A stretch of 64,000 nucleotides of DNA, from contig CAVQFQ010000021.1 in the NCBI GenBank assembly GCA_963711835.1, positions 1 to 64,000 of the forward strand. The letters run 5' to 3'. This document shows, piece by piece, positions 39,188-56,830 of this stretch. The position numbers and the translations under genes were made by a program. Numbering within the stretch: the stretch's first letter is position 1; the number at the start of each line of letters is the position of its first letter. A model generated the notes under the pieces. That model did not search any database and had not been told where the DNA came from. It saw only the letters and a list, made by a program, of their open reading frames with translations. This DNA comes from an uncultured delta proteobacterium (GTDB lineage Bacteria; Desulfobacterota; RBG-13-43-22).

Positions 39188-40414
39188 TTAAAGAATAAGA
39201 AATCGCTCATCCGCCAGAGTTAATTTTTCCACCCGGTCCTTATGGATTACAACCGTATTTTCAAATCCTACGGCCCCCTTCTCCAGAACAATTTTGAGCT
39301 CCAGAGCCAGGGTCATGCCTTCACGCAGGGGATAAGTATGGCCGGGGGCCAGAAAGGGATTTTCCGGACTTTCCAGCCCCACCCCATGGCCCACGTAGCG
39401 GATCTTTCTTTCAAGTGGTCCGAGAAACACATCCTCATATCCCAGTTCCCTGCCTTTAGCCAGGGCCAGGGGGAAAAGACTCTCCGCCGGAACCCCCGGA
39501 CGCAGGTGCTGAAGCAGATGGGCTTCGATTTCCATCAAGGCTTCATAGGCCTCCAAATATTCATGGCCTGGTTTTCCAATGGAATACATTCGGGTCTGAT
39601 CTACCTGGTAGCCGGTGTAGCAGGTGCCGAAATCGATCAACACCGGCTCCTTTTCTTGGATAGGTTTCAGGCTGGCCCCCAAAGGAAAGGCCGGACTAAG
39701 GCCCAGCCCTGAAAAGGGGGCGTCTATATTGCTGGGCAGGGTGCCCAACCGGCCGCTGACGACATGCCAGGTATAGATCTCACTGTTGAATCCCCGGCTG
39801 CGCAGGATGTTTTGGTGGCCCTGGCGCATGGCCAGGTAATTCATCCAGCCGGCGATTTCGATCTCAGAGCTGCCGGGACGGATAGTTTCGCAAATTTCCC
39901 GATAAATTTTCCCGCCGATCTCCCCTGCCCTTTTCAACAGACCCAGTTCATATTCAGACTTGGTCTCCCGAAGCGACCTGATCAAAGGCCAGACATCCCG
40001 GGACTGTTCAAATTTGAGAATTTCCTTCAGGAATTGGAAGGTGGAAAAAGGTAGCACGTCCAGCTCCAACCCAAGGCAGGCGGGGATGCGAAGGCCGCAC
40101 CGGCGGATCCCTTCACCCAGGTCGGTTATGGAGGACAGCCATTCAACTCTTTCCAGAGGGCTCTCCGCCTGGGCCCTTTGAAATTCTTTCTTAATTAAAA
40201 GTATTGGTTCCCCTTCCGAAGGAAGGAAAAGAAATCCATTTTGCAGGGTTCCGGTAAAATAATAGAGATCCACATTCTGATAAATAAGGGCCCCTTCGAT
40301 CCCTTCCGTTGACAGGAGCTTCTGAAAAGACAGAATCCTGCGGTTTATCTCCTCAGGCGGCGTTAAGGTGTCCCGGTAAAAAGAGGGGAGAGTAAATTCA
40401 CTGTTAATCGCCAT
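39188..40414 (-). CDS. Xaa-Pro peptidase family (M24) protein
   Basis: Creatinase-like N-domain; metal ligands in IDFG, VDQTR, GHGVG, LELK, FEN. Confidence 0.88.
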   Translation of the reverse strand: MAINSEFTLPSFYRDTLTPPEEINRRILSFQKLLSTEGIEGALIYQNVDLYYFTGTLQNGFLFLPSEGEPILLIKKEFQRAQAESPLERVEWLSSITDLGEGIRRCGLRIPACLGLELDVLPFSTFQFLKEILKFEQSRDVWPLIRSLRETKSEYELGLLKRAGEIGGKIYREICETIRPGSSEIEIAGWMNYLAMRQGHQNILRSRGFNSEIYTWHVVSGRLGTLPSNIDAPFSGLGLSPAFPLGASLKPIQEKEPVLIDFGTCYTGYQVDQTRMYSIGKPGHEYLEAYEALMEIEAHLLQHLRPGVPAESLFPLALAKGRELGYEDVFLGPLERKIRYVGHGVGLESPENPFLAPGHTYPLREGMTLALELKIVLEKGAVGFENTVVIHKDRVEKLTLADERFLIL

Positions 40415-40548
40415 AATCCAACTCCAATCTTTCAACCTAAAAAACAAACAAAGCCGGTTTTTTAGGTATTAATAATCCCGAAAAGCCTCAACCTTATAGG
40501 TATCCATGATAACAAAAATGGTGGTTTTCCTAAAGGTCATTTTTTTGC

Positions 40549-40663: not shown

Positions 40664-41269
40664 ATGAATAATAAAACCCCCAAAGAAAGCACCAAAGACC
40701 GCATTATAAATTCCGCTAAAAAGCTTTTTGCCGACCAGGGCTATCAAAAGACTACCGTTGTCGACATTTCCAAGCAGGCCGGACTGTCGGAGGCGGCCCT
40801 TTACGAATATTTTCAGGGCAAGGAGGACTTACTGCTGACCATACCCGATCTCTGGGTGGCGGACCTGATCGAAGACCTCAAAGACCAGCTTTTCGGTCTC
40901 AAAGGGGCCTTCAACAAGCTCCGGAAATACCTCTGGTGGAACATGCGACGGATCGAGCAGTCTCCTCTGGATGCCAAGATTGTCTATCTGTTTCTAAAGA
41001 CCAATGCCAATTTCATGAAGACCGAGGTTTACTCCAACGTCAAAATCCTTTATTCTTTCCTGACCGATATCTTTGAGGAAGGAAAGAAGAGCGGGGAAAT
41101 GAAACCGGACCTGGATCCCCTGCTGGCCCGGGCCATCTTTATCGGTGCCATGGACCACCTGGTAACCCGTTGGCTGCTGAAGGACATGTCTTATTCCCTG
41201 TTCGACAACCTGGAAGGGGTCTTTTCCTTAATGGAAGATGCCTTTCGAATTTCGGATTTGAAAACTTAA
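40664..41269 (+). CDS. TetR/AcrR (FadR-like) regulator
   Basis: IINSAKKLFADQGYQKTTVVDISKQAGLSEAALYEYFQGKEDLL HTH. Confidence 0.93.
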   Translation: MNNKTPKESTKDRIINSAKKLFADQGYQKTTVVDISKQAGLSEAALYEYFQGKEDLLLTIPDLWVADLIEDLKDQLFGLKGAFNKLRKYLWWNMRRIEQSPLDAKIVYLFLKTNANFMKTEVYSNVKILYSFLTDIFEEGKKSGEMKPDLDPLLARAIFIGAMDHLVTRWLLKDMSYSLFDNLEGVFSLMEDAFRISDLKT

Positions 41270-41287
41270 ACAAACGAAGGAGGGCAA

Positions 41288-43279
41288 ATGGCAAAGTTAC
41301 TGTTTGAATGGGATTACTCGTCCTACCCGGGGGCCCAACGGTACCCCAACCTTTTCAAGCCGATCCAGATCGGGAATCTGATGATTCCCAACCGGATCAA
41401 GTATGCCGCCACCGAGGACAACTTCAATGACCACAAGGGCTTTGTCACCGATGCCGATGTGGCCTACATGCGGGCCAGGGCCGAAGGCGTCGTCGGCGGT
41501 CTGTGCTTCATGCAGGGGGTGTATATGGATCCGGCCCGCAAGGGCCAGGGCTATGTGGGGCAGGCCGGAGCCTGGGACGACCAATACATCCCCGGCCTGA
41601 AAAGGCTGGCCGATGCCATTCACGGCGAACGGGCCGTGGCCGGCTTTCAGTTGATGGACTGCGGCCGCGTAGGCGCCGTGGAAGTGGAAAGCGGGCATGG
41701 TCCCTCTACCGTCCCCCAACGGCTCCGGGTCTTCAAACCCATGTTTGAGATGACCCATGCCGAAGTAAAGGAGATGATCCAACAACACGTCGAGGCGGCC
41801 ATACGAGGTCTGAAGGCCGGATTCGATATTATCGAGATTTCCGGTATCGTGGGTTATTTGATCTCCAACTTTCTCTCCAGCTATACCAATCGCCGGACCG
41901 ACGAATACGGCGGGGATATCCGCGGCCGGTCTCAGGCCATGATTGAGATCATCCAGGGCGTTAAGGCGGCCGTGGGTCCGGATATCCCGCTGGGCATCCG
42001 CCTTTGCTCCGAAGAACTACTCAATGATGTCCGGGGCAATACACCCGAAGAATCCATGATGACCTATAAGTTCGCCGAAGAAGCCGGGGCCGATTATATC
42101 AGTTGCACCCTGGGCTGGCAGGAATCCATCTTCCCGGTCATCAGCCGCGACATTCCCCAGGGCAACTGGCTCTACCTGGCCAAGCGGGCCAAGGAAAACG
42201 TCAAGATCCCCATCCAGATGGCCTATCGGATTTTCCTCCCCCACTTCCCCGATAGCGCAATAGCCAAAGGAGAACTGGATATTTGGGAGATCTGCCGCTC
42301 TATGATCGCCGATCCCCTGATGCCGAAAAAAGTGGCTGAGGGGCGGGAGGACGAAATCCGCCATTGCGTGGCCTGCAACCTTTGCCTGGCCCGTCTCTTC
42401 CGGGATGCACCCATGACCTGCTACATCAATCCCCTCTGCGCCCATGAACACGATCCGCGCTTTTATCCCCAGCCGGTCAAAGAAGAGGATAAAAAGAAGA
42501 TCATGATCGTCGGGGCCGGTCCTTCCGGACTGGAATGCGCCTATGTGGCGGCCCAGCGGGGCCATGAAGTCCATGTCTATGACAAACGGAACGAGCTGGG
42601 CGGCACCATCCTGGAGGCCTCCAAGGCCCCCTACGGCGACGATGAACTCATGACCTGCATCAACTTTCAAAAAACCCTCTGCAATAAATTCGGGGTCCAG
42701 TTCCACCTGGGAACCGAAGTGACCGATGAAATGATTTCCGACGAACTGCCTGACACCGTGGTCCTGGCTACCGGTCCGATTTATTCCCGCCTTACCGGCA
42801 AGGTAGCTGAGGGGGCCAAAGTGGTCAACATCCTGGATGTCATGGCCGGCAAGGTTGAAGTGGGCGAAAACGTCATCGTTTATGGAAACCGGAAACCGGG
42901 CATCGGCTGCGCCCTTCACCTGTCCAAACAAGGCAAGAAGGTCACCCTGGTCGGCAAAGAAAAGTCAGCCGGCTTTGACGTCAACCCCTCTTTCAAATGG
43001 CGGTATATGATCTACCTCCGGCAACACGGGGTCATGGTCTATAACGACTGCGATCTGGAAGAGGTGAATGCCGGCGAGGTCATTGTCAAAACCTATGACG
43101 GCTACCGATTTCCCTTGAAATGCGACACCATCATCCTTTCCGAACGGCAGGCCAACGAGAGTCTCAAGAAATCCGTCCTGGCGGAGGGGATTGAACATTT
43201 TGTCATCGGAGATGCCTTGGTGCCTCGTAACCTGTCCAGCGCCGTTCATGACGGCTACCGGGTCGGACTCCGGATCTAA
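41288..43279 (+). CDS. Old-yellow-enzyme family FMN/[4Fe-4S]/FAD reductase (dienoyl-CoA or aryl-CoA reductase-like)
   Basis: LFKPIQIG..NRI TIM-barrel start, GYLISNFLS..TNRRTDEYGG, CVACNLC-x11-C cluster, GAGPSG FAD motif; second dinucleotide motif is degenerate (VYGNRKPG). Confidence 0.88.
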   Translation: MAKLLFEWDYSSYPGAQRYPNLFKPIQIGNLMIPNRIKYAATEDNFNDHKGFVTDADVAYMRARAEGVVGGLCFMQGVYMDPARKGQGYVGQAGAWDDQYIPGLKRLADAIHGERAVAGFQLMDCGRVGAVEVESGHGPSTVPQRLRVFKPMFEMTHAEVKEMIQQHVEAAIRGLKAGFDIIEISGIVGYLISNFLSSYTNRRTDEYGGDIRGRSQAMIEIIQGVKAAVGPDIPLGIRLCSEELLNDVRGNTPEESMMTYKFAEEAGADYISCTLGWQESIFPVISRDIPQGNWLYLAKRAKENVKIPIQMAYRIFLPHFPDSAIAKGELDIWEICRSMIADPLMPKKVAEGREDEIRHCVACNLCLARLFRDAPMTCYINPLCAHEHDPRFYPQPVKEEDKKKIMIVGAGPSGLECAYVAAQRGHEVHVYDKRNELGGTILEASKAPYGDDELMTCINFQKTLCNKFGVQFHLGTEVTDEMISDELPDTVVLATGPIYSRLTGKVAEGAKVVNILDVMAGKVEVGENVIVYGNRKPGIGCALHLSKQGKKVTLVGKEKSAGFDVNPSFKWRYMIYLRQHGVMVYNDCDLEEVNAGEVIVKTYDGYRFPLKCDTIILSERQANESLKKSVLAEGIEHFVIGDALVPRNLSSAVHDGYRVGLRI

Positions 43280-43293
43280 GAAGGAGGTGTGCC

Positions 43294-43824
43294 ATGCCAG
43301 TTAATGCGACCAAAGAAATTACGACCTTATGGAGAAATCTCCATGGTGCCCAGGATGAAATCTGCAAAACCTTTTACCGCTGGCGGCAGGCCGCCCTGGA
43401 AGCTGCCGGTCCGGAGGCCAAGCCCCTGGATGTAGCTCTGAAAGCAGCCGAGATCTTCGGCAAGGAAATCGGGAAAAGCTTCCTGCCCCGCCTCAATTGG
43501 CTCAAAGGCAAGGAGGCCTTTATGGGGAGTTTGGCCGGGCTCATAGCCGGTTCTTGGGCCAACGAAGGGGCCGTCACTCAGGTTGAAAAAGGCGAAAAGG
43601 CCAACGAGGTCATCATTAAATGCACCCGGGATCCCTGGCCCAGCTTCGCCAAAGATTACGGCGTTCCCATGGAAGAGGTTGCCCTGACCCGGGAGAAGAT
43701 TCTTCAGACCATCCTGGAAGACGTGAGCGCCTTCTTTTGCATCAAGCTGGGTATTGAAATGCTCAAAGCCATCCCCAGAGGCCACGGCCTTTATATTTTC
43801 AGGCTCTACGAGATCGAAGGGTAA
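43294..43824 (+). CDS. Hypothetical protein, possible V4R/ATC-hydrolase-like fold
   Basis: AAGGAGGT RBS; pattern GKEIG...KCTRDPW...KAIPRGHG.YIFR resembles V4R-type proteins without the usual cysteines. Confidence 0.6.
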   Translation: MPVNATKEITTLWRNLHGAQDEICKTFYRWRQAALEAAGPEAKPLDVALKAAEIFGKEIGKSFLPRLNWLKGKEAFMGSLAGLIAGSWANEGAVTQVEKGEKANEVIIKCTRDPWPSFAKDYGVPMEEVALTREKILQTILEDVSAFFCIKLGIEMLKAIPRGHGLYIFRLYEIEG

Positions 43825-43835
43825 GGAGGTTGAAT

Positions 43836-44042
43836 ATGGCAGCTCAAGTGGATCCCAAAAAATGTACGATGTGCGGGGGGACCATGCAGCCGCTCTGCGT
43901 GGAGGTCTGTCCCGATGCCGCCATCCGGGTGCAGGATGGGCGAGTGGTGGTCACGGAATTCATCTGTGAGGACTGCAATGAATGCGGCTGTGTCTGTCCC
44001 GACCAAGCCATCAAGGTGCCTATGGAAAAGGTGACGTTCTAA
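43836..44042 (+). CDS. 2x[4Fe-4S] ferredoxin
   Basis: CTMC-x7-CVEVCP and CEDCNECGCVCP; AAGGAGGT RBS. Confidence 0.9.
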   Translation: MAAQVDPKKCTMCGGTMQPLCVEVCPDAAIRVQDGRVVVTEFICEDCNECGCVCPDQAIKVPMEKVTF

Positions 44043-44276
44043 CAAGGTGGGTTTGAGATGTCGGATACTGGATAAAAACAAAAAACGATACTGGATGCTG
44101 GATAAAGACCCGTTCTGTATTGGTTTGTTTTCATCCAGTATCCAGTATCGGTATTTTATCCAGAATCGGATGCAAAATCCTTGACCCCTTGAATCCTTTG
44201 ATTGCCCACCCTGGTGCAGGTGATCATCAAATGCCCAGAGAATCCATAAGGGACATAATGCCGGAGGAGAAAAGAA

Positions 44277-44714
44277 ATGAAAGTCAACAAAATGGATCAT
44301 ATCTGTATCGCCGTTAAGAATTTGGATGAGGCTCGAAAGACCTGGGAACCTCTTTTGGGAAAAACAGGTCCTGATGATGCCTATATCGACGAACCGGAAA
44401 AGATCAGGGTAGCCCGTTACTGGGTGGGCGAGATCGGCTTTGAGCTCATGGAATCCACCACCCCGGATGGCGATGTGGCCAAGTTCATCGAAAAACGGGG
44501 CGAAGGGGTCATGCTCATCAGTTTTAACGTGGGCAATACCCGGGAAGCGGTCCAGGAGCTTCAGGGAAAGGGGTTTCCCTTTATTCCCGATCCCAAAGGA
44601 GAAATCGCCCGGCCTTTCCGGGACTGCGAGTTTGCCTTTGTCCATCCAAAAAAATTAAACGGCGTTCTGACCGAACTCATTGATTATAAGTGGGATGAGT
44701 TGAAGGGCAAGTAA
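44277..44714 (+). CDS. VOC-family protein (methylmalonyl-CoA epimerase-like)
   Basis: MDHICIAVKNLD, FELMES, KFIEKRGEG, AFVHPKKLNGVLTELI. Confidence 0.85.
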   Translation: MKVNKMDHICIAVKNLDEARKTWEPLLGKTGPDDAYIDEPEKIRVARYWVGEIGFELMESTTPDGDVAKFIEKRGEGVMLISFNVGNTREAVQELQGKGFPFIPDPKGEIARPFRDCEFAFVHPKKLNGVLTELIDYKWDELKGK

Positions 44715-44737
44715 TAGACAACCTGACATCTTGGTTT

Positions 44738-44878
44738 AAAATTCGAAATTCGATCCGTCGCCGCGGACGAAACAAACTCAAATGATCAAAATCCAAAACT
44801 CGAAAGGTTTTTGTTTGGAACATTTGAATTTAGAAAATTTGGGTTTGTTTCGGATTTCGTGCTTCGGGTTTCGAATTT
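44738..44878. repeat. Gene-less inverted element of (CGAAATT/C) 7-nt units with a GC palindrome inserted in the left arm
   Basis: Right arm TTTGTTTCGGATTTCGTGCTTCG..TTTCGAATTT; an intact solo left arm occurs at ~53497-53560. Confidence 0.75.
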
Positions 44879-44917
44879 AGAGGTTTTTCCTGTTGAACGA
44901 GTCTGGAAAAATAGTCT

Positions 44918-45124
44918 ATGGCCAAACGAAATGTTTTTGAAGTTTACCTGGTCTACGTTGATCCGGATCGCTGCGACGGCTGCGAGGAATGCATCAAATT
45001 CTGCCCGGTGGACGTCTTTGATATGTTCCACAAGGCCATACCGGCCCGGCCTCGACACTGCCTGGGCTGCCGGACCTGCGAGGGAGTCTGCAAGTCGAAG
45101 GCTATAGTGATTACGGAGATTTAA
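44918..45124 (+). CDS. 2x[4Fe-4S] ferredoxin
   Basis: CDGCEECIKFCP and CLGCRTCEGVC. Confidence 0.88.
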   Translation: MAKRNVFEVYLVYVDPDRCDGCEECIKFCPVDVFDMFHKAIPARPRHCLGCRTCEGVCKSKAIVITEI

Positions 45125-45353
45125 AAAGAGGGGTCAAGTAGGAAATAACCTGCCTGATAAACTCCCGGGGAAATATCGTTGAGGTTCATTCCGCCGAAAG
45201 CCGGAATCTAGTACCTTAAGCCATTTTTGGATCGCAGGTTTTGCGGGAGCGGAAACAATTGGCTCGTTATATGAACGTCTGATGTAATTTTTTTCTGGAC
45301 CCTCGAACCCTTGAATCCTTGACCCCTTGAACCCTGGTATTTAGGACTTCGAT

Positions 45354-46712
45354 ATGAGTGATGCTATTCTGGTAATCGGCGGCGGCATTGCCGGCATCAA
45401 TTGCGCCCTGAACGCCGCCAAATACGGCACCAAAGTCTATCTGGTGGATGATACCCCTAGTATCGGGGGCATGATGGCCCGCCTGGACAAGACCTTTCCT
45501 ACCAATGATTGTTCCATCTGCATCGAATCCCCGGAAATGTACGAGGTAAACAATCACCCGCAAATCGAAATCCTGACCAACACCGAGGTTCGCAAGGTCA
45601 ACCGGGTCAATGGAAACTTCAAAGTCAAACTCCAGAAAAAAGCCAAGTTTATCGATGAAGAAAAATGCACCGGCTGTGGAGCCTGCGTCGAGGCCTGCCC
45701 GGTCAGCTTGCCCGACGTCATGGACGGCAAGATCGGAGGTCGGCGAAAACTGATCTCTCTGGCCTTTCCCCAGGCGGTTCCCAATTGCGTTTACCTCGAT
45801 CCGGACTGCCGTCACGGCCGGAAGCGGGACCAGGGTGCCTGTGTCGGAGGCTGCGTAGTAGACTGCAGCCAATGCCGGGAATGCCCCATCGCCCTCTGTG
45901 TCAAGGCCTGTCAAAAAGAAGGGAAAGATGCGATCCGTCTCTGGCAATCCAACAAAAATCTCGATCTGGAAGTAAAAAGCATCGTAGTCGCCGCCGGGAT
46001 CATGGGCGCCCCTCCTCCCCAAGGTCTCTACGGGTATGATCTGTTTCCTAACGTCATCACCAATATTGAGTTCGAGCGTCTGATGAATGCCGGCGGTCCC
46101 ACGGAAGGCCGGATCATCCGGCCTTCCGATCAGAAGCATGCCCAGCGCATCGCCTGGATCCAGTGCGCCGGCCGGGGACTGGTGACCGGTGTGCCCTACT
46201 GCTCCAAAGTCTGCTGCATGATCGCCGCCAAACAGACTATTATCACCAAGGAACATGACCCGTCGGTGGAAACCACCATCTTTTATAATGACTTGAAAGC
46301 CTATGGGAAAGGCTTTTGGGGTTTTTACCGCAAGGCCCTGGAGAGCGGGGTCCGTTATGTGCGGGCCCGGCCGCATGATGTCTGCGAAGATCCGGAAACA
46401 GCCAATCTGATTCTTCGCTTCGAGGATCTTGAAAGCGGAGATATCCGGACTCAGGAATGTGACCTTTTGGTCCTGTCCACCGGGTTGATCCCCAGCGACC
46501 GCAACGAAAAGCTGGCCAAGGTTCTCGGAATCGAGCTGGATAAATTGGGATACTTTAAAGAGGAAAACCCTCTTAGAGACCCGCTGGCCACCCGGATCGA
46601 AGGCATCTATGTCTGCGGCGGGGCAACCGGCCCCATAGACATTTCCGAATCAGTGGTCCAAGCCACGGCCGCCAGTATGAAAGCGGTATTAAGAAGACAA
46701 GATACTGGATAA
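45354..46712 (+). CDS. hdrA: HdrA-like flavoprotein (QmoA-sized)
   Basis: GGGIAG, LDKTFPTNDCSIC, ferredoxin insertion, EFERLMNAGGPT, CAGR...YCSKVCC, GPIDISESV. Confidence 0.88.
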   Translation: MSDAILVIGGGIAGINCALNAAKYGTKVYLVDDTPSIGGMMARLDKTFPTNDCSICIESPEMYEVNNHPQIEILTNTEVRKVNRVNGNFKVKLQKKAKFIDEEKCTGCGACVEACPVSLPDVMDGKIGGRRKLISLAFPQAVPNCVYLDPDCRHGRKRDQGACVGGCVVDCSQCRECPIALCVKACQKEGKDAIRLWQSNKNLDLEVKSIVVAAGIMGAPPPQGLYGYDLFPNVITNIEFERLMNAGGPTEGRIIRPSDQKHAQRIAWIQCAGRGLVTGVPYCSKVCCMIAAKQTIITKEHDPSVETTIFYNDLKAYGKGFWGFYRKALESGVRYVRARPHDVCEDPETANLILRFEDLESGDIRTQECDLLVLSTGLIPSDRNEKLAKVLGIELDKLGYFKEENPLRDPLATRIEGIYVCGGATGPIDISESVVQATAASMKAVLRRQDTG

Positions 46713-46827
46713 AGACAAAAAACGATACTGGATGCTGGATAACTTCTAATACGCTATTTTGGGATTCTCATCCAGTATCCAGTATCCGGCATCCAGTATC
46801 GTTTTTTTATCCGGAAAAGGTTTCCAA

Positions 46828-48888
46828 ATGAACGAAGAAATCAGGGTCGGTGTTTTTATCTGTGACTGCGGATCCAATATCGCCGGGGTGGTTAATGTCC
46901 CCGAACTGGTGGAGTACGCCAAAGGGCTTGACCGGGTCGTCTTGGCCGATGAAGGCCGATGGTCCTGTTCGGTGGACTACCTGGCCCGCTTACAGGATTC
47001 CATCAAGGAGCACAACCTCAACCGGGTGGTGATCGCCTCCTGTACCCCGCGCACCCATGAACCCTTATTTAAACAAACGGTCAAAGAAGCCGGGCTTAAT
47101 CCCTATCTCCTGGAATTCGTCAGCATCCGCGAGCAGGTTTCCTGGGTCCACATGAAAGAGCCGCAGAAAGCCACCGATAAGGCCAAGGACCTGGTCCGTA
47201 TGGGTGTGGCCAAGGCCGTCCTCCTGGAAGAAGGGGAAGAGATCCGCCTGCCGGTCGGCAGCGACTGTCTGATCATCGGGGGCGGGATGGCCGGCATGAC
47301 TGCGGCCTTGCAAATCGCCGACCAGGGCTTTCAGGCCATCCTGGTGGAAAAAGAAGCCCGTCTGGGCGGACTGCTCAACAAAATATCCCACATCTCCCAT
47401 GACCACTACAACCTGCCGGCTGAGGAAATCCTTCAGGAGATGATCGCCCGGGTGCAGGCCCATCCCCGTATAAAAATATTTTCCAATGCCGAAATTGAGA
47501 GCTTGGAGGGGTATATCGGGAACTACCGCCTGGTCCTGAAGGCTGACGGCAACCAGGTGAATTTCCCGATTTCCACCGTGATCGTGGCCACCGGCATGAA
47601 GGAGCTTGAACCGATTGGCTTGTTTGAATACGGCCGCGATCCGAAGGTCATCACCCAGCTTCAACTGGAAGAACGATTGAAAGCCGGCGGTTTGGGACCA
47701 ATCAAAGATGTAGTCATGATCAACTGCGTCAATTCCAAAAACGATACCCGGGGCTGTTGTAATGTAGGTTGTCCCATTTCAATAAAAAATGCCCTGGTCC
47801 TTAAGTCCCTCTTTCCCGAGGCCCGCATTCATATTCTTTACCGCGACCTGAGTCTGGTGAAAGAGGAGCATTTCCCTTTGGATGCCGCCAAAGGGGCCGG
47901 CATCAAGTTTATCCGGTTTCCGGACAGCCGCTATCCTGAAGTAAATCAGGTCCATGGGGGGCTGCAGATAAAGGTCTATGATATCTTATTAGGCCGAGAA
48001 CTCTCCCTTCCCTGCGATTTATTGGTTCTGACTACGGCCTTTACCGGTGACGATACGGTGGAAAAGGTCAAAGGACTCCTGAAGGTCTCCAGTAATGCCG
48101 AAGGGTTCTTTCAGGAAAGACATATCAAACTCGGGCCCTTGGATTTTCCGGCCGACGGCATCGCTCTGTGCGGCTGTGCCAAGAATCCCAAAAGCCTCAA
48201 GGAGACCTGTGAAGAAGGCTTAGGGGCGGCCATGCGGGTCTCCATCCCCATGAACAGGGGTTTTATTGAAGCCGAAGGAATCGTAGCCGAAATAGACCCC
48301 TCCCTCTGCAACAACTGCGGCATCTGCTGGAAGCGTTGCCCCTACACGGCCATCAAGGTGACCGAAGCCAAGGAACCGCTGGTCATCAAGGCCCTCTGCA
48401 AAGGCTGCGGCTTGTGCGCCGCCGACTGCCCGAAGGAGTGTATCACTATCGTTCATTATACCGATGCCCAGCTCCAGGCCCAAGTGGAAGCGGCTTTGGC
48501 CGAAAACCCAGGAGAAAAAATCCTGGGTTTTGTCTGCCACTGGTGCGCGCTGGGCGGTGTGGACATGGCCGGTGTCAGCCGCCTCCAATACCCGACTCAT
48601 GCCCGATTGATCCGAGTCATGTGTTCGGCTCGGGTGCCCATCAAGCTGATCGAACGGGCCTTTGAACTGAAGGCCGGCGGCGTACTGGTGGCCGGATGCG
48701 AATTCCCCACCTGTCACTATATTTCCGGCAATTACGCCTGCGAAACACGGGTGAAACGGGCCAAAGGCAAGCTGGCTAAAAAAGGCTACGACCCGGATAA
48801 GCTCTGGAACGTCTGGTGTTCGGCCGCCGACGGCCCCAAGTTCGCCAACACCATGCGGGTAATGTCCAAGCAGTTAGGCCTAACATAA
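46828..48888 (+). CDS. hdrA: HdrA-MvhD fusion (QmoB-like architecture)
   Basis: FICDCGSNI...CTPRTHE...IREQVSW N-domain, GGGMAG, two CxxCxxCxxxCP, C-terminal MvhD motifs GFVCHWC, RVMCSAR, GCEFPTCHY. Confidence 0.88.
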   Translation: MNEEIRVGVFICDCGSNIAGVVNVPELVEYAKGLDRVVLADEGRWSCSVDYLARLQDSIKEHNLNRVVIASCTPRTHEPLFKQTVKEAGLNPYLLEFVSIREQVSWVHMKEPQKATDKAKDLVRMGVAKAVLLEEGEEIRLPVGSDCLIIGGGMAGMTAALQIADQGFQAILVEKEARLGGLLNKISHISHDHYNLPAEEILQEMIARVQAHPRIKIFSNAEIESLEGYIGNYRLVLKADGNQVNFPISTVIVATGMKELEPIGLFEYGRDPKVITQLQLEERLKAGGLGPIKDVVMINCVNSKNDTRGCCNVGCPISIKNALVLKSLFPEARIHILYRDLSLVKEEHFPLDAAKGAGIKFIRFPDSRYPEVNQVHGGLQIKVYDILLGRELSLPCDLLVLTTAFTGDDTVEKVKGLLKVSSNAEGFFQERHIKLGPLDFPADGIALCGCAKNPKSLKETCEEGLGAAMRVSIPMNRGFIEAEGIVAEIDPSLCNNCGICWKRCPYTAIKVTEAKEPLVIKALCKGCGLCAADCPKECITIVHYTDAQLQAQVEAALAENPGEKILGFVCHWCALGGVDMAGVSRLQYPTHARLIRVMCSARVPIKLIERAFELKAGGVLVAGCEFPTCHYISGNYACETRVKRAKGKLAKKGYDPDKLWNVWCSAADGPKFANTMRVMSKQLGLT

Positions 48889-48911
48889 AGCTTTTTTATG
48901 CAATTTTTCTT

Positions 48912-49100
48912 TTCGCCACAGACGGACGCAGACCTTCAAATTGGATCTGGGGCGGTCCGTTATAAACCAAAACGGACCACCCCAGTCTTGCCAGCCCTTT
49001 CGGGCACAAATTCGGCTTTAGCCCGGACAGGATTTTACCGGCCTTAGTCGGCCGGAAAAATATCCCGTCTGCCTTTGTCCGTGTGGGTCTGTGGCAAAAA
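48912..49100. repeat. Gene-less inverted element
   Basis: GCCACAGACGGACGCAGAC ... GTCTGCCTTTGTCCGTGTGGGTCTGTGGC arms. Confidence 0.7.
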
Positions 49101-49116
49101 AATTGAGGTGTTCTTA

Positions 49117-50838
49117 ATGCCAATGGCTGTAAAAATCGACGGCGTCAACATGTTCCGCACCTGCGAGCAGTGCGGCTATTGCAGCTCGGCCTGCCCGGTT
49201 TCCGGGGTCAACGGTTTTAATATCCGGCGTATCCTCAGGCATGCCGAATTGGATATACTCGATGAATTGGCGCCAACGCCGCTGCCCTGGACCTGCACCA
49301 CCTGCGGACGATGCGAAGGAGTCTGTCCCAACGGCATCGCCATACTGGACATCATCCGTCCCCTTCGTTCCCTGTCCCCTCCGGAGTTTGTTCCAGACGG
49401 TCCGCCCTGCACCCTGGCCTGCCCGGCCGGAATCGATGTACCGGGGTATGTGCGGCTGATTGCCCAAGGAAAGCCCGAGGAAGCCTATGCCCTGATCCTC
49501 GGCAAAGTACCCTTTCCGGGAATCCTGGGCAGGGTCTGCACCCATCCCTGCGAAACCTCCTGCCGGAGAAGGGAAGTGAATCAGCCGATCGCCATCTGCG
49601 CCTTGAAGCGTTTTGCTGCGGATAAAGGAGGCCAAACCCCGGCGAGTTGGCTGACGATTTCTCCCGATACGGGCCGCCGAGTAGCGGTCATCGGCGCCGG
49701 TCCGGCCGGATTGACAGCCGCTTTTTATCTGCGTCGGAAGGGCCACTGGGTCAGCCTGTTCGAAGAAAAACCCAAACCGGGGGGCATGATGCGCTACGGC
49801 ATCCCGGCCTATCGGCTGCCTGAAGATATTTTGGAAAATGAGATCAATCGGGTTTTGTCGGCCGGAATAGAGCTGAAAACCAATCAAGCCTTGGGCCGGG
49901 ACTTCACTTTGGGGCAGTTACAGGCGGATGGATTTGAGGCGGTCTTCCTATCCCTGGGTCTTTCTTCGAGCCGAAAAATCGAGTTGGAGGGGGTCGCCCT
50001 GGACGGAGTCCTCTGGGGGGTGGACTTTCTTAAAGCCGTAAAAGAAGGACAAGCCCCGGACCTGAAGGAGAAAGTCATGGTCATCGGCGGCGGCAATGTG
50101 GCCGTGGATGTGGCCCTGACCGCCCTTCGGCTGGGGGCCAAGGAAGTAACCCTGGCCTGTCTGGAGAAGCGAGAGGAGATGCCGGCCAACCCCTGGGAGA
50201 TCGAAATGGCCCTGGAAGAAGGGGTCAAGATCATGGCTGCCTGGGGGCCCCATAAGATTTTAGGGGATACCGGTCAGGTCAGCGGCATCGAATTGATCCA
50301 ATGCACTTCGGTCTTTGACGCCCAGGGGTATTTCTGCCCCCGGTTCGGGGAGGCCAGAGAATCGCTGCCAATGGATCAGGTCATCCTGGCTGTCGGCCAG
50401 ACAACCGACTTATCCTTTGTTCCGGGAGACCTGTCTCTGGGAATGGAAAAGGGGCTGATCGTTATTGACCCTGAAATCCTTCAAACCAATCTGTCCGGTG
50501 TCTTTGCCGGCGGTGACATCGTCAAAGGACCAGGCACCATCATCGAAGCCATCGCTTCGGGCCGGAAAGCCGCCTCTTCCATCGATCGATTTCTGGGAGG
50601 CGACGGCAATATCGAAGAATCTTTCACCTGGAATCAGGAGTCTGTTGACTATTCCGGTAAAAGGGAACAAGGTTTTGCCGATCAGCGGCGGGAAGAGAAC
50701 CCTGTATTGCCCGTGTCGGAGAGGACCCCCGGCTTTCCCGAAGTGGACCTGCCTTTCACCGACGAACAGGCCTTGAGAGAAGCCGCCCGCTGTCTCCAGT
50801 GCGACTTGGAAATCCGCCTGGCCCTGGCAGAGGGCTAA
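49117..50838 (+). CDS. HdrC-like ferredoxin domain fused to a GltD/NfnB-like NAD(P)H oxidoreductase
   Basis: CEQCGYCSSACP and CTTCGRCEGVCP, then CPAGIDV, GRVCTHPCE, GAGPAG, GGGNVA, FAGGD, EAARCLQCD. Confidence 0.88.
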   Translation: MPMAVKIDGVNMFRTCEQCGYCSSACPVSGVNGFNIRRILRHAELDILDELAPTPLPWTCTTCGRCEGVCPNGIAILDIIRPLRSLSPPEFVPDGPPCTLACPAGIDVPGYVRLIAQGKPEEAYALILGKVPFPGILGRVCTHPCETSCRRREVNQPIAICALKRFAADKGGQTPASWLTISPDTGRRVAVIGAGPAGLTAAFYLRRKGHWVSLFEEKPKPGGMMRYGIPAYRLPEDILENEINRVLSAGIELKTNQALGRDFTLGQLQADGFEAVFLSLGLSSSRKIELEGVALDGVLWGVDFLKAVKEGQAPDLKEKVMVIGGGNVAVDVALTALRLGAKEVTLACLEKREEMPANPWEIEMALEEGVKIMAAWGPHKILGDTGQVSGIELIQCTSVFDAQGYFCPRFGEARESLPMDQVILAVGQTTDLSFVPGDLSLGMEKGLIVIDPEILQTNLSGVFAGGDIVKGPGTIIEAIASGRKAASSIDRFLGGDGNIEESFTWNQESVDYSGKREQGFADQRREENPVLPVSERTPGFPEVDLPFTDEQALREAARCLQCDLEIRLALAEG

Positions 50839-50856: not shown

Positions 50857-51366
50857 CTAATTTTTATTTACTGTACCCTTTTGGCTTAATGGTCTAACCT
50901 TGGATCCTGGAACTATCTCCAGTCGATCAATGCCATGGACTTCGAATTCTTCCATGTATCTAATACGATATGGTTCTTCTTTCTTGACCCGAGCCATTGG
51001 ATCAAGGGCCAGGTATTTTTTCTCTCCTAATTCACGATAAAGATCCCGTGCTACAAGACGCTCGATCAATTCATCCCAGAAACTGTCGTTTTCAAATTCT
51101 TCAATATAGTCCATCGAAGGATTCGTTTTTTCAAACTCCAGAGTCGGAAAATAGCTCTGCAATTCCGGGTCATAGTCAACCAAGTGGCCGTTTCCAAAGT
51201 CTTTGGCCAGACCGCAAATTTTCTGTTCTAAATCCCGATAGGGCTTGGTCTCCTCCGGCTCATCGATCTTGTGGGCATAGAGGATCCACTCAGCCATTTC
51301 AATCATTTCAAATAGGGTTTTAAATTCACTTTTTGTGATCTCGATTTTCATCTTACTTTTCCTCAT
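50857..51366 (-). CDS. Acidic hypothetical protein, AT-richer than its neighbours
   Basis: 169-aa ORF with plausible composition; no motif recognised. Confidence 0.65.
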   Translation of the reverse strand: MRKSKMKIEITKSEFKTLFEMIEMAEWILYAHKIDEPEETKPYRDLEQKICGLAKDFGNGHLVDYDPELQSYFPTLEFEKTNPSMDYIEEFENDSFWDELIERLVARDLYRELGEKKYLALDPMARVKKEEPYRIRYMEEFEVHGIDRLEIVPGSKVRPLSQKGTVNKN

Positions 51367-51428: not shown

Positions 51429-53453
51429 CTATTTTCTAAATTCCGGCTTCCTTTTTTCCAGAAAGGCCGAGATGCCCTCCCTGGCCGCATCAGTGCAGGC
51501 GATCTCCCCGAAGCCCTGATAACCAATCTCCAGGGCCTCCGCCAGGGTTTCGGCCTTGGCAGCCGCCTGGATCGTTTTCATGGTAATGGCAACGGCCTCC
51601 CTGCTCAAAGGCCGTTTGCCGGCCAGAGGAGGATCGGGAAGCTGAAATTCAGGCAGATCCACCCTGCCCTCGGGAATCCTTTCAATCTTTCCCTGGAGGT
51701 TCTTGACCTCTTCAACAGCCATTTCAATCATCCCGGCATAATCATCGGCCAATTTTTTAACCAGCCCCACCTCCGCGGCCTCCTTGGCCGGGATGGGTCT
51801 GGCCAGGCAGATCATTTCATGAAAAAGCTTTGCCCCCTGAGGCCAGCGGCGATATGGCACGACGCAGCCGCCGATTCCGGGCAGGATGCCCAGGGTAATT
51901 TCCGGGAATTGAAAGGTGGATTTCCGGGTAGCCACGATGCCGTGGCAGCGCAGGGCCACTTCCAGACCGCCGCCCATGGCAAAACCGTTTACCGCAGCTA
52001 CCACCGGCTTGTCCATCTGATCCATGAAGCGTTGGACCTTGGCGCAATCCCGACTATACTGAACTGCGGCCTCCTTGTCGCCCAGCATCTCAGGGAATTT
52101 TCCGATGTCCGCCCCGGCTGAAAAAGCCTGATTTCCATAACCGGTAATGACAAACCCTTTTACTCCCGGATCCTGGCTGTATTTCATAAGGACGGACAGG
52201 ATTTCATCGGTGATTACATCGCTCAGGGCGTTCATAGCCTGAGGCCGGCGGAGGGTAATGATTTTAACGCCTTCTATTTCATCCAGCAGCAGGTAACGGT
52301 TGAAGTCCAGATAATAAGAGAGACCCTGCCTGGCTGAAGGAAACCCCGGCCGGTCCTTCTGAAATCGGCTCATAATGCGATTGACTTCCTTTTCGCCCAA
52401 CTCCGCCATGATATCCAATACCCCTTTCCGAAAGCCGAGGGCTATCTGGCAGCCGAAGTTGAGGTCTTCCCGGGTCCCGATGCCGCGGTCTATGACGTCA
52501 AAGGCTTGCGAGAAAAGGATCCCCAGCAGCCGGTCCCGGATGGTCCCTTTCAAGGCCTCCGGCACCTCCACTTTAGCGCCCGGACGATGGGTCAGCCATT
52601 TCTCCACCGATCCCAGAATGGCAGCCGGTTTATAATGAGCGCCCTCTTCCATCTGGAGGGTGTTGGTTTCGATGATGATCGGATTTCCGTTGGCCAGATT
52701 CAGGACAAAGAACGGACCGGCGGAAACAAAGGCTTCGGCCACCTTGTCGATCTGGCCGGCGTTGGCCTGGTCCAGCAGATAGGCGGCATCGTTGCACCAG
52801 TTGTCGAAGATGCGGTCCAGCATAAAGCAAAGGGCATTATCCGTTACCATCGGGGCCTTGCCGGTAGCGGCAAAAAACCAGCAGAGCCAATCCACGGTAT
52901 CCGGATCGGCCCCCGGCCAGTTGATTACTTCCACGGGAAGGGAACGCCAGGCCGGGGCAAAAAAGTGAGTAATGGTGGTCCGTTCCTGACGTTTCATTTT
53001 GTTAAAGATCCGGTCGGCCGGGATGGAACTGGTATTGGAGGTAATGATCGCCTGGTCGCTGACGATGCCTTCTACTGTCTCAAAGATCTTTTGCTTGATC
53101 GGGATGCGCTCCGTAGCCGCTTCGATAACCAGGTCGCAGTTTTTAATCTGAGCGTAATCCTGGGTATAGAGGATGCCCCCCAGGACTTCCCGGGCCTTTT
53201 CCTCTTTCATCTTCTTCATGTCCAGGGCTTTTTGCACATATCCGGCCAGCCTCTTCTCGGCCTTTTTGAGGGGCTCATCGGCTACATCAACCAGATATAA
53301 CCGGATGCCGGGCAGGGCGCTCTTCAGGTAATAGCCGATGTCCGGGCCGATGGTCCCGGCGCCGATCACGGCGATTTCTTTGGGCAACGGCCTTTTCGGT
53401 TTCAGAAATAAGGGATTAAAAAACGAGGGGTAGAGTTTTTTCACTTGATCCAT
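51429..53453 (-). CDS. 3-hydroxyacyl-CoA dehydrogenase / enoyl-CoA hydratase fusion (dehydrogenase first)
   Basis: GAGTIG, VIEAATE, SNTSSI, HFFAPA; then AMNAL, FSAGADI, GGGLEVAL, PEITLGILPG; GGAGG RBS. Confidence 0.92.
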   Translation of the reverse strand: MDQVKKLYPSFFNPLFLKPKRPLPKEIAVIGAGTIGPDIGYYLKSALPGIRLYLVDVADEPLKKAEKRLAGYVQKALDMKKMKEEKAREVLGGILYTQDYAQIKNCDLVIEAATERIPIKQKIFETVEGIVSDQAIITSNTSSIPADRIFNKMKRQERTTITHFFAPAWRSLPVEVINWPGADPDTVDWLCWFFAATGKAPMVTDNALCFMLDRIFDNWCNDAAYLLDQANAGQIDKVAEAFVSAGPFFVLNLANGNPIIIETNTLQMEEGAHYKPAAILGSVEKWLTHRPGAKVEVPEALKGTIRDRLLGILFSQAFDVIDRGIGTREDLNFGCQIALGFRKGVLDIMAELGEKEVNRIMSRFQKDRPGFPSARQGLSYYLDFNRYLLLDEIEGVKIITLRRPQAMNALSDVITDEILSVLMKYSQDPGVKGFVITGYGNQAFSAGADIGKFPEMLGDKEAAVQYSRDCAKVQRFMDQMDKPVVAAVNGFAMGGGLEVALRCHGIVATRKSTFQFPEITLGILPGIGGCVVPYRRWPQGAKLFHEMICLARPIPAKEAAEVGLVKKLADDYAGMIEMAVEEVKNLQGKIERIPEGRVDLPEFQLPDPPLAGKRPLSREAVAITMKTIQAAAKAETLAEALEIGYQGFGEIACTDAAREGISAFLEKRKPEFRK

Positions 53454-53641
53454 GGTTTGCCTCCTTAATGCACTTTATAAAAAGTTGAGATATATAAATC
53501 CGAAATTCGAAGCACGAAATCCGAAACAAATACAAATGACAAAAATTCAAATGTACTAAACAAGTTGAAGAGCCTGCCACGGAAAATACATTTTGCCCTT
53601 CCCCTTTCAGCTACGAGCTATGAGCTGTGAGCTATCAGCTT

Positions 53642-54922: not shown

Positions 54923-55495
54923 ATGAATTTTTATCGTAACGAATCCTTATCCCTTGATTTTAGAAATCCTCCCCCAGGCCCACCGATCCTTTCAGGCCGT
55001 GACAACCGGCAAGGCTGGACCCTTATTGAAATGCTGACCATTATTGCGGTCATTGGTATTATCGCCGCTATCGGCATCCCTAATTTTTCAAACTGGATTC
55101 ACAGCTTTCGCTTAAAAAATGCCGCCAGTGATATGATGTCCAATCTTCATAAGGCCCGAATGAGAGCGATCAGTCAGAATAGCAACTGTGTGGTGTCCTT
55201 TGATCTGACCGGTTCCGGGAGTTATCTCCTGTTTATGGACGACGGCGCGGGAGGAGGCACAGCCAAAAACGGCCTAAGAGACGGCTCTGAAGAACTGATC
55301 AAGAGTGTTTCTCCGGCCACCGATAATCCCGGCATTGCCTTAATCGGCGTCACCTTAGACGGGTCCTCCGCCTATGGGTTTACCCCCATGGGGTTGTCTT
55401 TCGCCAACCGCTCCGGATCCGTAGTTTTTCAAAATCAAAGCGGCACAACACGCCAGGTCGATCTTTCGGCCGGGGGAAATATCAGCCTTCATTGA
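54923..55495 (+). CDS. fimT: GspH/FimT-family minor pilin
   Basis: Prepilin site RQG/WTLIE plus hydrophobic helix; LHKARMRAI. Confidence 0.85.
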   Translation: MNFYRNESLSLDFRNPPPGPPILSGRDNRQGWTLIEMLTIIAVIGIIAAIGIPNFSNWIHSFRLKNAASDMMSNLHKARMRAISQNSNCVVSFDLTGSGSYLLFMDDGAGGGTAKNGLRDGSEELIKSVSPATDNPGIALIGVTLDGSSAYGFTPMGLSFANRSGSVVFQNQSGTTRQVDLSAGGNISLH

Positions 55496-55503
55496 GGTCG
55501 GGT

Positions 55504-55863
55504 ATGGGATTTAGAAAGAAGCGTAACCAAAAAGGATTTACCATATTGGAGGTTTTGATTGCCGTCTCGGTCTTCTCCTTTGCCTTGCTGGCCCTGGCCC
55601 AAATGCAGATTATGGCTATTCAAACCAATGCCACCAGCCAGCAGCGAACCACGGCCATCACCTTGGCCCAGGATAAAATGGAAATTTTAAAAAGGCTTCC
55701 TTATACCCAGATCGGCACCGGCAACGACGTTTCCGGCCTGTTTGCCCGAAGCTGGAATGTACAGAACGATTTCCCATCGAGCGGGATGAAAACCATAAAC
55801 CTCACGGTGAGCTGGGCCGCGGGTTCCAAGGCAGTAACGCTGCAGACCATGGTTACCCAATGA
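55504..55863 (+). CDS. pilV: PilV-like minor pilin
   Basis: QKG/FTILEVLIA; AITLAQDKME. Confidence 0.85.
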   Translation: MGFRKKRNQKGFTILEVLIAVSVFSFALLALAQMQIMAIQTNATSQQRTTAITLAQDKMEILKRLPYTQIGTGNDVSGLFARSWNVQNDFPSSGMKTINLTVSWAAGSKAVTLQTMVTQ

Positions 55864-56828: not shown

Positions 56829-56830
56829 AG

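Follow-up and report, generated by a model that had tools for sequence, protein, structure and literature searches.

Type III aryl-CoA reductases, namely, 2-naphthoyl-CoA reductase (NCR), DHNCR, and AprB-E, share a three-domain old yellow enzyme (OYE) fold, a four-cysteine cluster, and a lost NAD(P)H glycine motif, and in the available accounts (PMC6502838 and PMC13365417) their natural donor is only assumed to be ferredoxin. For the class II benzoyl-CoA reductase (BCRII) of Geobacter metallireducens, low-potential electron delivery by BamDEF has been proposed. As described in a cryo-EM preprint (bioRxiv 10.64898/2026.04.10.717634), BamE is a fused HdrA dimer in which the first FAD bifurcates, electrons enter via a C-terminal ferredoxin domain and MvhD-like BamF, the low-potential output runs through an inserted ferredoxin domain to the catalytic unit, and the high-potential electron of the bifurcating FAD goes to HdrBC-like BamD. 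Here, we describe a gene cluster at positions 40664-50838 of a 64,000-nucleotide stretch (the window) of contig CAVQFQ010000021.1 (coded C21) from an uncultured delta proteobacterium (GCA_963711835.1, coded G000, ~89% complete), in which an NCR-like OYE is joined to two ferredoxins and a BamE-like heterodisulfide reductase (Hdr) module. The feature is real and conserved and combines two known modules in a new way; literature searches, which covered the main texts of openly available papers, turned up no account of an OYE linked with HdrA genes. Tentatively, and at somewhat less than even probability, the NCR-like flavoenzyme with its own ferredoxins and split BamE/Hdr module is read as a putative ATP-independent 2-aminobenzoyl-CoA (anthraniloyl-CoA) reductase that would end anaerobic indole and indoleacetate breakdown.

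The likeness to BamDEF lies in the two BamE halves, the MvhD adaptor, and the HdrC-type subunit. Unlike in BamDEF, the halves are encoded by two genes with MvhD fused to the second, the inserted domain carries four extra cysteines, the catalytic unit is a flavin OYE and not tungsten BamB, there is no BamGHI input, and a GltD domain or HdrB stands in place of BamD and the electron-transferring flavoprotein (ETF). HdrB with the noncubane clusters of HdrABC is absent from the locus but present in five homologous loci. With QmoABC and AprAB, the cluster shares the order HdrA, HdrA-MvhD, HdrC-X serving a flavoenzyme with a small ferredoxin, where X can be HdrB; in contrast to QmoABC, it has a GltD domain and no membrane haem domain, no aprA or sat linkage, and an OYE as partner. 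Escherichia coli FadH (PDB 1PS9) has the same three domains as the OYE (TM-score 0.89), but retains an NADPH glycine motif along with SEGY and the His in GWHE. According to PMC6849830 (Table 4), the neighbours of NCR genes are NADH:quinone-oxidoreductase-like, not an Hdr module as here, and no UbiD-carboxylase-cluster or thn-type genes, the polycyclic aromatic hydrocarbon (PAH) context of type III aryl-CoA reductases, were found among the annotated neighbours of the cluster loci. The indoleacetate (iaa) pathway of Aromatoleum aromaticum has counterparts by gene content in the genomes with the cluster for its ligase, CoA-transferase, B12 mutase, hydantoinase, Mo-hydroxylase, acyl-CoA dehydrogenase with ETF, hydratase/dehydrogenase fusion, and thiolase, whereas the available part of its description (PMC8360864) names neither an OYE nor a ferredoxin pair or Hdr genes.

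A conserved cluster with an NCR-like OYE

The nine genes of the cluster, all on the + strand, were delimited from the open reading frame (ORF) list and family searches, which confirmed the co-oriented tetR, OYE, V4R-like, Fd, VOC, Fd, hdrA, hdrA-mvhD, and hdrC-gltD set given by the first-pass annotation of the window. They encode a TetR/FadR-type regulator, likely acyl-CoA responsive (40664-41269; PF00440 and PF08359), the three-domain OYE (FMN, [4Fe-4S], and FAD), a candidate 2-aminobenzoyl-CoA reductase (41288-43279), a 176-aa accessory protein of V4R/H-NOX/TRAPP fold with no Pfam match (43294-43824), the acidic 2[4Fe-4S] ferredoxin Fd1 with eight invariant Cys (43836-44042), a methylmalonyl-CoA-epimerase-like VOC protein (44277-44714; TIGR03081, 75 bits, below the cutoff), a second 2[4Fe-4S] ferredoxin, Fd2 (44918-45124; Pfam Fer4, eight Cys invariant in 59 loci), HdrA1, the first half of the split BamE-like HdrA pair (45354-46712), HdrA2-MvhD (46828-48888; PF02662 at residues 565-683), and an HdrC that carries a fused NAD(P)(H) flavodomain of the GltD/NfnA/StnC type (49117-50838; TIGR03290 at 14-86 and PRK12771). 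The probable starts of the last two are ATG 46828 and ATG 49117. Intergenic gaps measure 11-18 nt as far as Fd1 and 115-234 nt beyond; the "one operon" proposed earlier stands as co-orientation and is only possibly a single transcript.

From a scan of GTDB genomes, 76 loci were obtained out of the best 80 of 107 confirmed stretches, and the order OYE-V4R-Fd1-VOC-Fd2-HdrA1-HdrA2-MvhD was kept wherever the contig allowed. The sole exception, L054, had room available, yet lacked the Fd2-Hdr half. An aminotransferase was inserted after VOC in 15 loci, the V4R-like gene was present in 72/76, and tetR adjoined the OYE in 51/76, its best NCBIfam match, NF053878 FadR, being below the cutoff. All carriers were metagenome-assembled genomes (MAGs) or an uncultured symbiont, with no cultured carrier among the 76 loci. 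In a co-occurrence sample of 301 genomes drawn evenly from the phylum, the OYE (at least 70% identity) and an HdrA1 orthologue were found in exactly the same five genomes and in no others. The order kept over 76 loci and this coincidence argue that the OYE-Hdr linkage is not chance, and the possibility raised earlier, that the linkage might not be conserved in other genomes, fell away.

The best solved relative of the OYE by sequence was NCR with 456 bits, against 243 for FadH and 198 for amine dehydrogenases, and NCR (PDB 6QKG) was also Foldseek rank 1 with a TM-score of 0.91 and 38% identity. The OYE is closer to NCR than to the NADPH-using FadH by these alignment scores and by fold, and the alternative raised earlier, a grouping with FadH, likewise fell away. 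The three motifs pointed out earlier were all present, namely, EISGIVGY (183-190), GWQE (276-279), and VYGNRKPG (531-538), and I187, V188, Y190, Q278, and G533-G538 were invariant in 119/119 close homologues. Loss of the NAD(P)H glycine motif was likewise borne out, with GNRKPG in its place in 119/119, but the blocking W459 of NCR is Leu here. The HxxH/N pair is indeed absent; it had been taken as a mark against FadH, which in the alignment lacks the pair too, and the feature that sets the OYE apart from FadH is IVGY, common to NCR, where FadH has SEGY. Many homologues carry the database label (NADPH-dependent) 2,4-dienoyl-CoA reductase.

Residues of NCR were mapped by eye from the alignment and the numbering in PMC6502838 and counted in 75 core, 11 sister, and 2 distant sequences. 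Kept were I194, V195, Y197, R245, T280, G282, Y320, E341, F379, D569, and the four cluster cysteines (C360/363/366/378, in 75/75 core OYEs), T280, G282, and Y320 being those of the thioester enolate and E341 being FMN-lowering in NCR. The FMN pocket has I187 and V188 in place of the two His and E334 as the E341 equivalent, as in the NCR family. Changed were V38 to E43, N247 to C240, H284 to Q278, and H117 to D124 and the naphthyl-pocket residues F375 to L367 and F573 to S568, so that the residues marking NCR orthologues (FAD shell, W459, Q545, F375, F573, H284, and V38) are not those of the OYE. The resulting signature is E43, I187-V188-x-Y190, C240, Q278, Y313, and E334. A sister clade of 120 proteins, ~47% identical and with source labels that include Planctomycetota, Latescibacteria, and Myxococcales, carries E43, IVGY, C240, Q278, Y313, and E334 in 120/120, which suggests that both clades carry out the same reaction and that its substrate is polar. 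The additional acidic residues near FMN (E43, D124, and E334) would point to a low-potential flavin. These comparisons support an NCR-like three-domain enzyme acting on a CoA ester, which is predicted to work like a type III aryl-CoA reductase yet is no NCR orthologue. A more distant OYE clade (L110 and L111; 36-38%), with Ser at position 43 and a different cluster motif, was found near CoA ligase, transporter, or bam genes and forms another uncharacterised type III-like group (L110 against NCR, 426 bits).

Architecture of the Hdr module

In an alignment to the HdrA of 5ODC, HdrA1 showed a FAD domain with LDKTFPT-CxxC and an inserted ferredoxin domain, and it keeps the positions of E356 and K409 of 5ODC (numbering counted by eye), which we take to be functional in bifurcating HdrA. 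All marks of the HdrA type, LDKTFPT-CxxC, the Glu and Lys, and the core [4Fe-4S] cluster, are present, with the Cys invariant in 48/48 sequences. The inserted domain (residues 152-186) has eight cysteines compared to four in methanogen HdrA, invariant in 48/48; the four extra ones, C152/163/167/171 (also 48/48), would possibly be enough for a third or extra Fe-S cluster. HdrA2 consists of an N-terminal cluster domain, a FAD domain without LDKTFPT or inserted ferredoxin, a C-terminal ferredoxin, and the fused MvhD, in which C570, 573, 599, 624, and 629 were found in 41/41 loci. HdrA1 is 37% identical to the N-part and HdrA2 41% to the C-part of the genome's own BamE, and judged by these alignments, HdrA1 and HdrA2-MvhD are a split BamE/Hdr pair. 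In L083 and L087, a natural fusion of HdrA1 with HdrA2 was considered and discarded, as the two genes lie in different frames. The genome has 13 MvhD matches, that of the OYE-Hdr cluster being without in-frame TGA; an in-frame TGA, likely selenocysteine, was seen at five other MvhD-domain places (C21:64704, 111633, 116585, and 303624 and, on contig C17, C17:736927).

The nearest structures to HdrC-GltD were NfnA 9N5U, 9BOV, and 8OH5. The nucleotide-binding motif of the GltD domain is intact and reads GGGNVA then CLE in 28/31, which would suit either NAD(H) or NADP(H). No CCG/HdrB domain was found in 40664-50838, the nearest CCG match lying at 62433 as one of 37 in the genome. The earlier statement that there is no HdrB therefore holds at the locus and fails for the family: among the 41 loci reaching the next gene, HdrC-GltD was found in 34, HdrC (with HdrB) in 6, and neither in 1. 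HdrB was visible, with both CCG motifs intact, in 5/6 loci of the HdrC and HdrB type, the sixth being cut at a contig end, and in the five HdrBC-type genomes searched, HdrC-GltD had not been relocated elsewhere (best match 52%, inside 850-960-aa proteins). The HdrBC type forms one clade in the HdrA1 tree (support 97) and needs three changes in the OYE tree, a quick tree, which suggests that the Hdr half is a swappable module.

Since BamD takes the high-potential electron in BCRII, HdrC-GltD would sit in the same slot, and by this analogy we place it with good confidence on the high-potential branch. The first-pass annotation had this branch as not encoded in the cluster, a view that HdrC-GltD in the BamD slot and HdrC and HdrB at the same position in 6/41 loci do not support. 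It also had NAD(P)H entering at GltD and HdrA bifurcating to ferredoxin, a wiring at odds with the 7/41 loci without GltD there and with the five HdrBC-type genomes without relocated HdrC-GltD. NAD(P)H entry at GltD survives only in the form of confurcation, and GltD probably acts as an exit or co-donor and not as the only way in.

Probable link to indole and indoleacetate catabolism and the proposed reaction

The iaa route passes through (2-aminobenzyl)malonyl-CoA and 2-aminocinnamoyl-CoA (PMC8360864) and has 2-aminobenzoyl-CoA as its end product (PMC12852158). Recurrent neighbours of the cluster were TrpB2 and IorAB (both over the NCBIfam cutoff), SerA, SerC, an aminotransferase, hydantoinase A/B, a Mo-hydroxylase, a fusion of 3-hydroxyacyl-CoA dehydrogenase and enoyl-CoA hydratase (HCDH-ECH), and a thiolase; TrpB2 or hydantoinase lay at most 10 kb away in 14/76 loci. 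Hydantoinase and Mo-hydroxylase were reportedly named as iaa cluster members by Ebenau-Jehle in 2012. In G000, the region C21:188370-205823 (L193), ~140 kb from the OYE-Hdr cluster, carries a CoA-transferase, B12 mutase, hydantoinase A/B, CoA ligase, and Mo-hydroxylase, of which ligase, transferase, and mutase match named iaa enzymes (PMC8360864). Acyl-CoA dehydrogenase is absent from this iaa-like cluster, with a 53% match on C17; the full content of ligase, CoA-transferase, B12 mutase, hydantoinase, Mo-hydroxylase, and acyl-CoA dehydrogenase was found together in L099/L100 and L198. G249 and G010 have the OYE-Hdr cluster and iaa-like genes in a single stretch. The L193 mutase and hydantoinase A and B genes are in several frames, like parts of the C17 Bam cluster, possibly due to assembly errors.

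Fifty of the 76 cluster genomes were searched, those left out being mostly short or near-duplicate loci, and a hydantoinase-B orthologue (at least 64%) was found in 44/50, one being the query source. Within the 301-genome sample, hydantoinase was present in 4/5 core-OYE, 11/16 sister-OYE (43-49%), and 23/280 other genomes, and the fifth core-OYE genome has a variant cluster (L195). Sister OYEs have no Hdr genes nearby and only a ferredoxin. Three of 14 sister loci (L108, L109, and L114) adjoin TrpB2, IorAB, or mutase/CoA-transferase and most others lie in unrelated surroundings, while 8/33 metagenome sister loci (L147, 148, 151, 154, 159, 164, 174, and 176) have the OYE and ferredoxin beside iaa-like genes or VOC, namely, mutase, Mo-hydroxylase, CoA-transferase, hydantoinase, or VOC. 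Separate genes exist for the remaining redox steps of the iaa route; amino-group removal or ring reduction is the step that has none. Altogether, the OYE cluster is very probably linked to indole and iaa catabolism, and the PAH setting suggested earlier was abandoned, the genome having one UbiD and the recurring neighbours being indole, tryptophan, and indoleacetate genes.

The TrpB2 clusters adjoining OYE or VOC (L017, L019, L045, L048, L056, L062, L067, L082, L108, L114, and L135-L139) carry SerA, SerC, aminotransferase, and IorAB. Their content suggests that free indole may be fixed onto phosphoserine to give tryptophan, then indolepyruvate and indoleacetyl-CoA, instead of direct hydroxylation; no paper on indole catabolism via TrpB2 fixation was found in the literature search. 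An aminotransferase near the iaa-like clusters, considered as kynureninase, scored as a cysteine desulfurase family protein. 4-Aminobenzoyl-CoA was considered as a substrate and set aside; a Mo-type candidate for the 4-aminobenzoyl-CoA step in Desulfatiglans anilini is given in PMC7500099. As for respiration, C21:155386-157801 carries a dsrA over the cutoff with a second dsrA-family match alongside, no sat or aprA was found in G000 at ~89% completeness (the aprA search having no positive control), and G000 may reduce sulfite or organosulfonates only.

We infer substrate, product, and electron direction alike from sequence. That 2-aminobenzoyl-CoA is the substrate of the OYE we consider slightly better than an even bet. 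In the proposed reaction, FMNH- would add a hydride to ring C4 and Tyr190 would protonate C3, after which the amino-dienoyl-CoA would lose ammonia by hydrolysis to 6-oxocyclohex-1-ene-1-carbonyl-CoA, to be opened by Oah. By formula balance, two-electron reduction of 2-aminobenzoyl-CoA plus enamine hydrolysis would give exactly the Oah substrate; as Oah would take the product directly, BamB, Dch, and Had would be bypassed. Glu43, at a position next to FMN N5, might lower the flavin potential or engage the amine. Reduced ferredoxin, e.g., from indolepyruvate:ferredoxin oxidoreductase, would enter via Fd2, the C-terminal ferredoxin domain, and MvhD, and the HdrA1 FAD would bifurcate by homology with BCRII. 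The low-potential electron would pass through the enlarged inserted ferredoxin domain of HdrA1 to Fd1 and the OYE, and the high-potential one via HdrC, ending on NAD(P)+ at GltD or, in the variant, on HdrB. For the bifurcating direction itself, the scales are evenly balanced: bifurcation from reduced ferredoxin would explain the interchange of GltD and HdrB as sinks, and the less acidic FAD shell of the OYE fits Qmo-type confurcation. The boldest form of the proposal, a tungsten-free, ATP-free, flavin-only dearomatisation of the 2-aminobenzoyl-CoA ring that is driven by BamE-type bifurcation, passes the high-potential electron to NAD(P)+ or HdrB, and skips benzoyl-CoA, we regard as rather doubtful.

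As for genes of the benzoyl-CoA pathway, 45 of the 50 cluster genomes had Oah, 41 Had, 33 BamB (searched with a protein sharing 78% identity with G000 BamB), and 2 BzdN; Dch gave weak matches in 26/50, none over the cutoff. In G329, a single 5.57-Mb contig with the cluster, iaa-like genes, TrpB2, HCDH-ECH, and Oah, no Had, no BzdN, and no BamB orthologue were found, only 30-44% AOR-type matches to BamB. G335 and G348 showed the same pattern, but are fragmented MAGs. In several marine Desulfobacterales (L075, L077, and L249), had and oah are found at a distance of ~8 kb from the cluster.

Several observations weigh against the proposed assignment. The iaa assignment is one of gene content, for which NCBIfam gave generic families only; neither OYE clade occurs in 23/38 hydantoinase genomes, so the route can do without the enzyme; and the genomes are related MAGs whose counts overstate independence (family f9, hydantoinase in 10/10). 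The bypass argument rests mainly on G329, which itself has HAD/BCR-family genes below the Bcr/Bzd cutoffs and a dch-like gene beside oah. In two BamB-negative genomes, BamB is broken at contig ends, G000 keeps BamB, Had, and Oah, and Had is retained in 41/50 cluster genomes. The reduction of a plain benzene ring by an OYE is unsettled for AprE in the Discussion of PMC13365417. The acidic FAD shell of NCR is gone in the OYE (E446 to T440, W459 to L454, E541 to K536, and Q545 to G540), a substitution pattern that speaks against a FAD of very low potential. The Lys beside the core cluster is retained in HdrA2 as well, so this residue does not fix which FAD bifurcates, and the Hdr-less sister OYEs manage with ferredoxin alone, so that the extra driving force from Hdr may not be needed.

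A strong rival, to which we nonetheless assign a low probability, removes the amino group and keeps the ring, converting 2-aminobenzoyl-CoA to benzoyl-CoA or 2-aminocinnamoyl-CoA to cinnamoyl-CoA. Hydride would be added to the amino-bearing carbon and ammonia lost with Glu43 as acid, followed by HCDH-ECH, thiolase, and class II benzoyl-CoA reductase. Such a reductive step from 2-aminobenzoyl-CoA to benzoyl-CoA was reported for Azoarcus (PMC4539516), and NCR defluorinates 6-F-naphthoyl-CoA by hydride addition (PMC6502838); His284, in NCR the activator of the carbon-protonating Tyr, is Gln in the OYE, and the amino carbon of 2-aminocinnamoyl-CoA would be the delta carbon attacked by FadH-type enzymes. 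The HCDH-ECH fusion closely tracks the cluster, in G010 OYE, VOC, acyl-CoA dehydrogenase, ETF, HCDH-ECH, and thiolase all run in the same direction, and BamB is found in 33/50 cluster genomes, G000 included. However, benzoyl-CoA would be a dead end in G329, where no recognisable benzoyl-CoA reductase or Had was found, the HCDH-ECH orthologue is missing in 10/50 cluster genomes, and Oah (45/50) is commoner than BamB (33/50). An earlier or oxidative role of the OYE on an indolic CoA ester (indole-3-acetyl-CoA, oxindole, or indole-carbonyl-CoA), with the Hdr module conserving the released electrons as reduced ferredoxin and NAD(P)H or thiol, would agree with the dehydrogenases among three-domain OYEs (histamine and trimethylamine dehydrogenase), with an NCR-like pocket suited to bicyclic indole, and with the frequent TrpB2 and IorAB neighbours. 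It is quite improbable, as these genomes carry separate genes for hydroxylation, ring opening, rearrangement, and oxidation, and the low-potential flavin to which E43, D124, and E334 would point speaks against it.

The remaining rivals concern the wiring. In confurcation as proposed for QmoABC, compatible with either substrate reading, HdrA1 would be fed both by reduced ferredoxin and by NAD(P)H at GltD (or thiol at HdrB), and the merged mid-potential electrons would run through MvhD and Fd1 to the OYE, sparing ferredoxin. We hold this possible, if on the unlikely side: the order HdrA, HdrA-MvhD, HdrC-X matches QmoABC (PMC3333476), some organisms have HdrBC in place of QmoC (PMC13416013), Fd1 weakly matches AprB, the OYE is without the NCR acidic FAD shell, and sister clades run on ferredoxin alone, but the interchange of GltD and HdrB is easier if both are sinks, and the extra cysteines lie on the HdrA1 inserted domain, the low-potential output in BCRII. 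With HdrB, moreover, a thiol would serve as co-donor, and the mean of its potential and that of ferredoxin, ~-325 mV, looks too weak for aryl-CoA. The original scheme, in which NAD(P)H comes in at GltD, HdrA bifurcates to ferredoxin, the high-potential acceptor is encoded elsewhere, and the substrate is a PAH-type aryl- or dienoyl-CoA, is highly improbable. HdrC-GltD follows HdrA2-MvhD in 34/41 loci with an intact nucleotide-binding motif, the 37 CCG-domain matches in the genome could supply a partner in trans, and NCR is the best structural match; against this, HdrC is on the high-potential exit in the BCRII structure (as the preprint describes it), 7/41 loci have no GltD there, the genome has one UbiD with no PAH genes seen nearby, and the naphthyl-pocket F375 and F573 as well as H284 differ.

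Accessory genes, flanking regions, and significance

The V4R-like call for the 176-aa gene held at the fold level (AlphaFold2 pLDDT 94.7), with TRAPP/Bet3, H-NOX, and the PoxR phenol-sensing domain as the best Foldseek matches. Its Atlas look-alikes are named ATC-hydrolase family (PF14196 on 12% of hit 2 members), and ligand binding or enamine hydrolysis are guesses at its role. Fd1 is likely the dedicated donor to the OYE, and a small ferredoxin also follows the OYE in the Hdr-less sister clades. The OYE-Fd1 complex prediction gave 0.23 against a mark of 0.32 and was not used either way. The AprB likeness of Fd1 is weak (22 bits versus a cutoff of 136; 3GYX_B, E 0.004) and serves as a lead only; its AprB-like insertion is absent from the sister ferredoxins. 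Fd2 is likely the input relay to the Hdr module.

VOC orthologues were found in 30/301 genomes, 24 of which also have hydantoinase, and the protein probably belongs not to the reductase but to the iaa route, as its (aminobenzyl)malonyl-CoA epimerase, which fits an epimerase converting the unused enantiomer in that route (PMC12852158). A VOC role in serving ring reductases, suggested by its position beside bamB in G256, was dropped, as 1/30 loci were of this kind and VOC tracks hydantoinase. In the same-family relatives L118, L122, and L124, a VOC gene 82-86% identical adjoins the M24 gene without OYE-Hdr genes, in two of them with a radical SAM gene alongside, which suggests loss or gain of the cluster there.

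Upstream and divergent lies an M24/creatinase-like hydrolase gene (39188-40447, - strand; PF00557 and PF01321), relatives of which turn up repeatedly close to the cluster and to the VOC gene. Downstream and convergent, the HCDH-ECH fusion (51429-53453, - strand, assigned with Pfam) is separated from the cluster by a 169-aa gene without family match (50857-51366, - strand). The fusion is adjacent to the cluster in 13/76 loci, has an orthologue in 40/50 cluster genomes, and at the level of at least 65% was found in 4/5 core-OYE genomes and 0/296 others of the 301-genome sample; it is co-inherited with the cluster, and we infer an IaaP-like role. Genes resembling type IV minor pilins, called by eye, follow at 54923-58540 (+ strand).

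Promoter and terminator scans of the window were at chance level (10 versus 10.4 and 15 versus 20.2). Three RNA runs from one study contained contigs of a relative, mostly 90-99% like the window over most of it, from which level and transcript were not readable and which were not counted. Intergenic repeats, some palindromic, are common to several cluster gaps (44064-44178, 46701-46829, 44768-44879, 53495-53563, 44176-44199, and 45298-45337); they draw many unrelated RNA-run contigs and so look like dispersed repetitive extragenic palindromic (REP)-type elements.

Anaerobic 2-aminobenzoyl-CoA reductase activity is mentioned in a review (PMC4539516), and no gene assigned to it was found in the literature search; PMC6221969, a review from 2018, treats the anaerobic breakdown of indole and tryptophan, with anthranilate as common intermediate, as a "black box". 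The cluster makes anaerobic anthranilate reduction testable with a defined gene set, and the donor question of type III aryl-CoA reductases with an OYE that has its own ferredoxin and Hdr module, the latter in two natural versions differing at one terminal. The BCRII bifurcation assay is described as blocked by an ETF short-circuit (bioRxiv 10.64898/2026.04.10.717634), which the GltD version would avoid, as it would need only ferredoxin and NAD(P)+. If the proposal is true, the cluster would provide a natural electron supply, genetically defined, of a type III aryl-CoA reductase, a gene-level answer to anaerobic anthranilate reduction, and a third route into the benzoyl-CoA pathway, and the Glu43 clade, widespread in sediment bacteria of several phyla, could mark anaerobic indole degradation.

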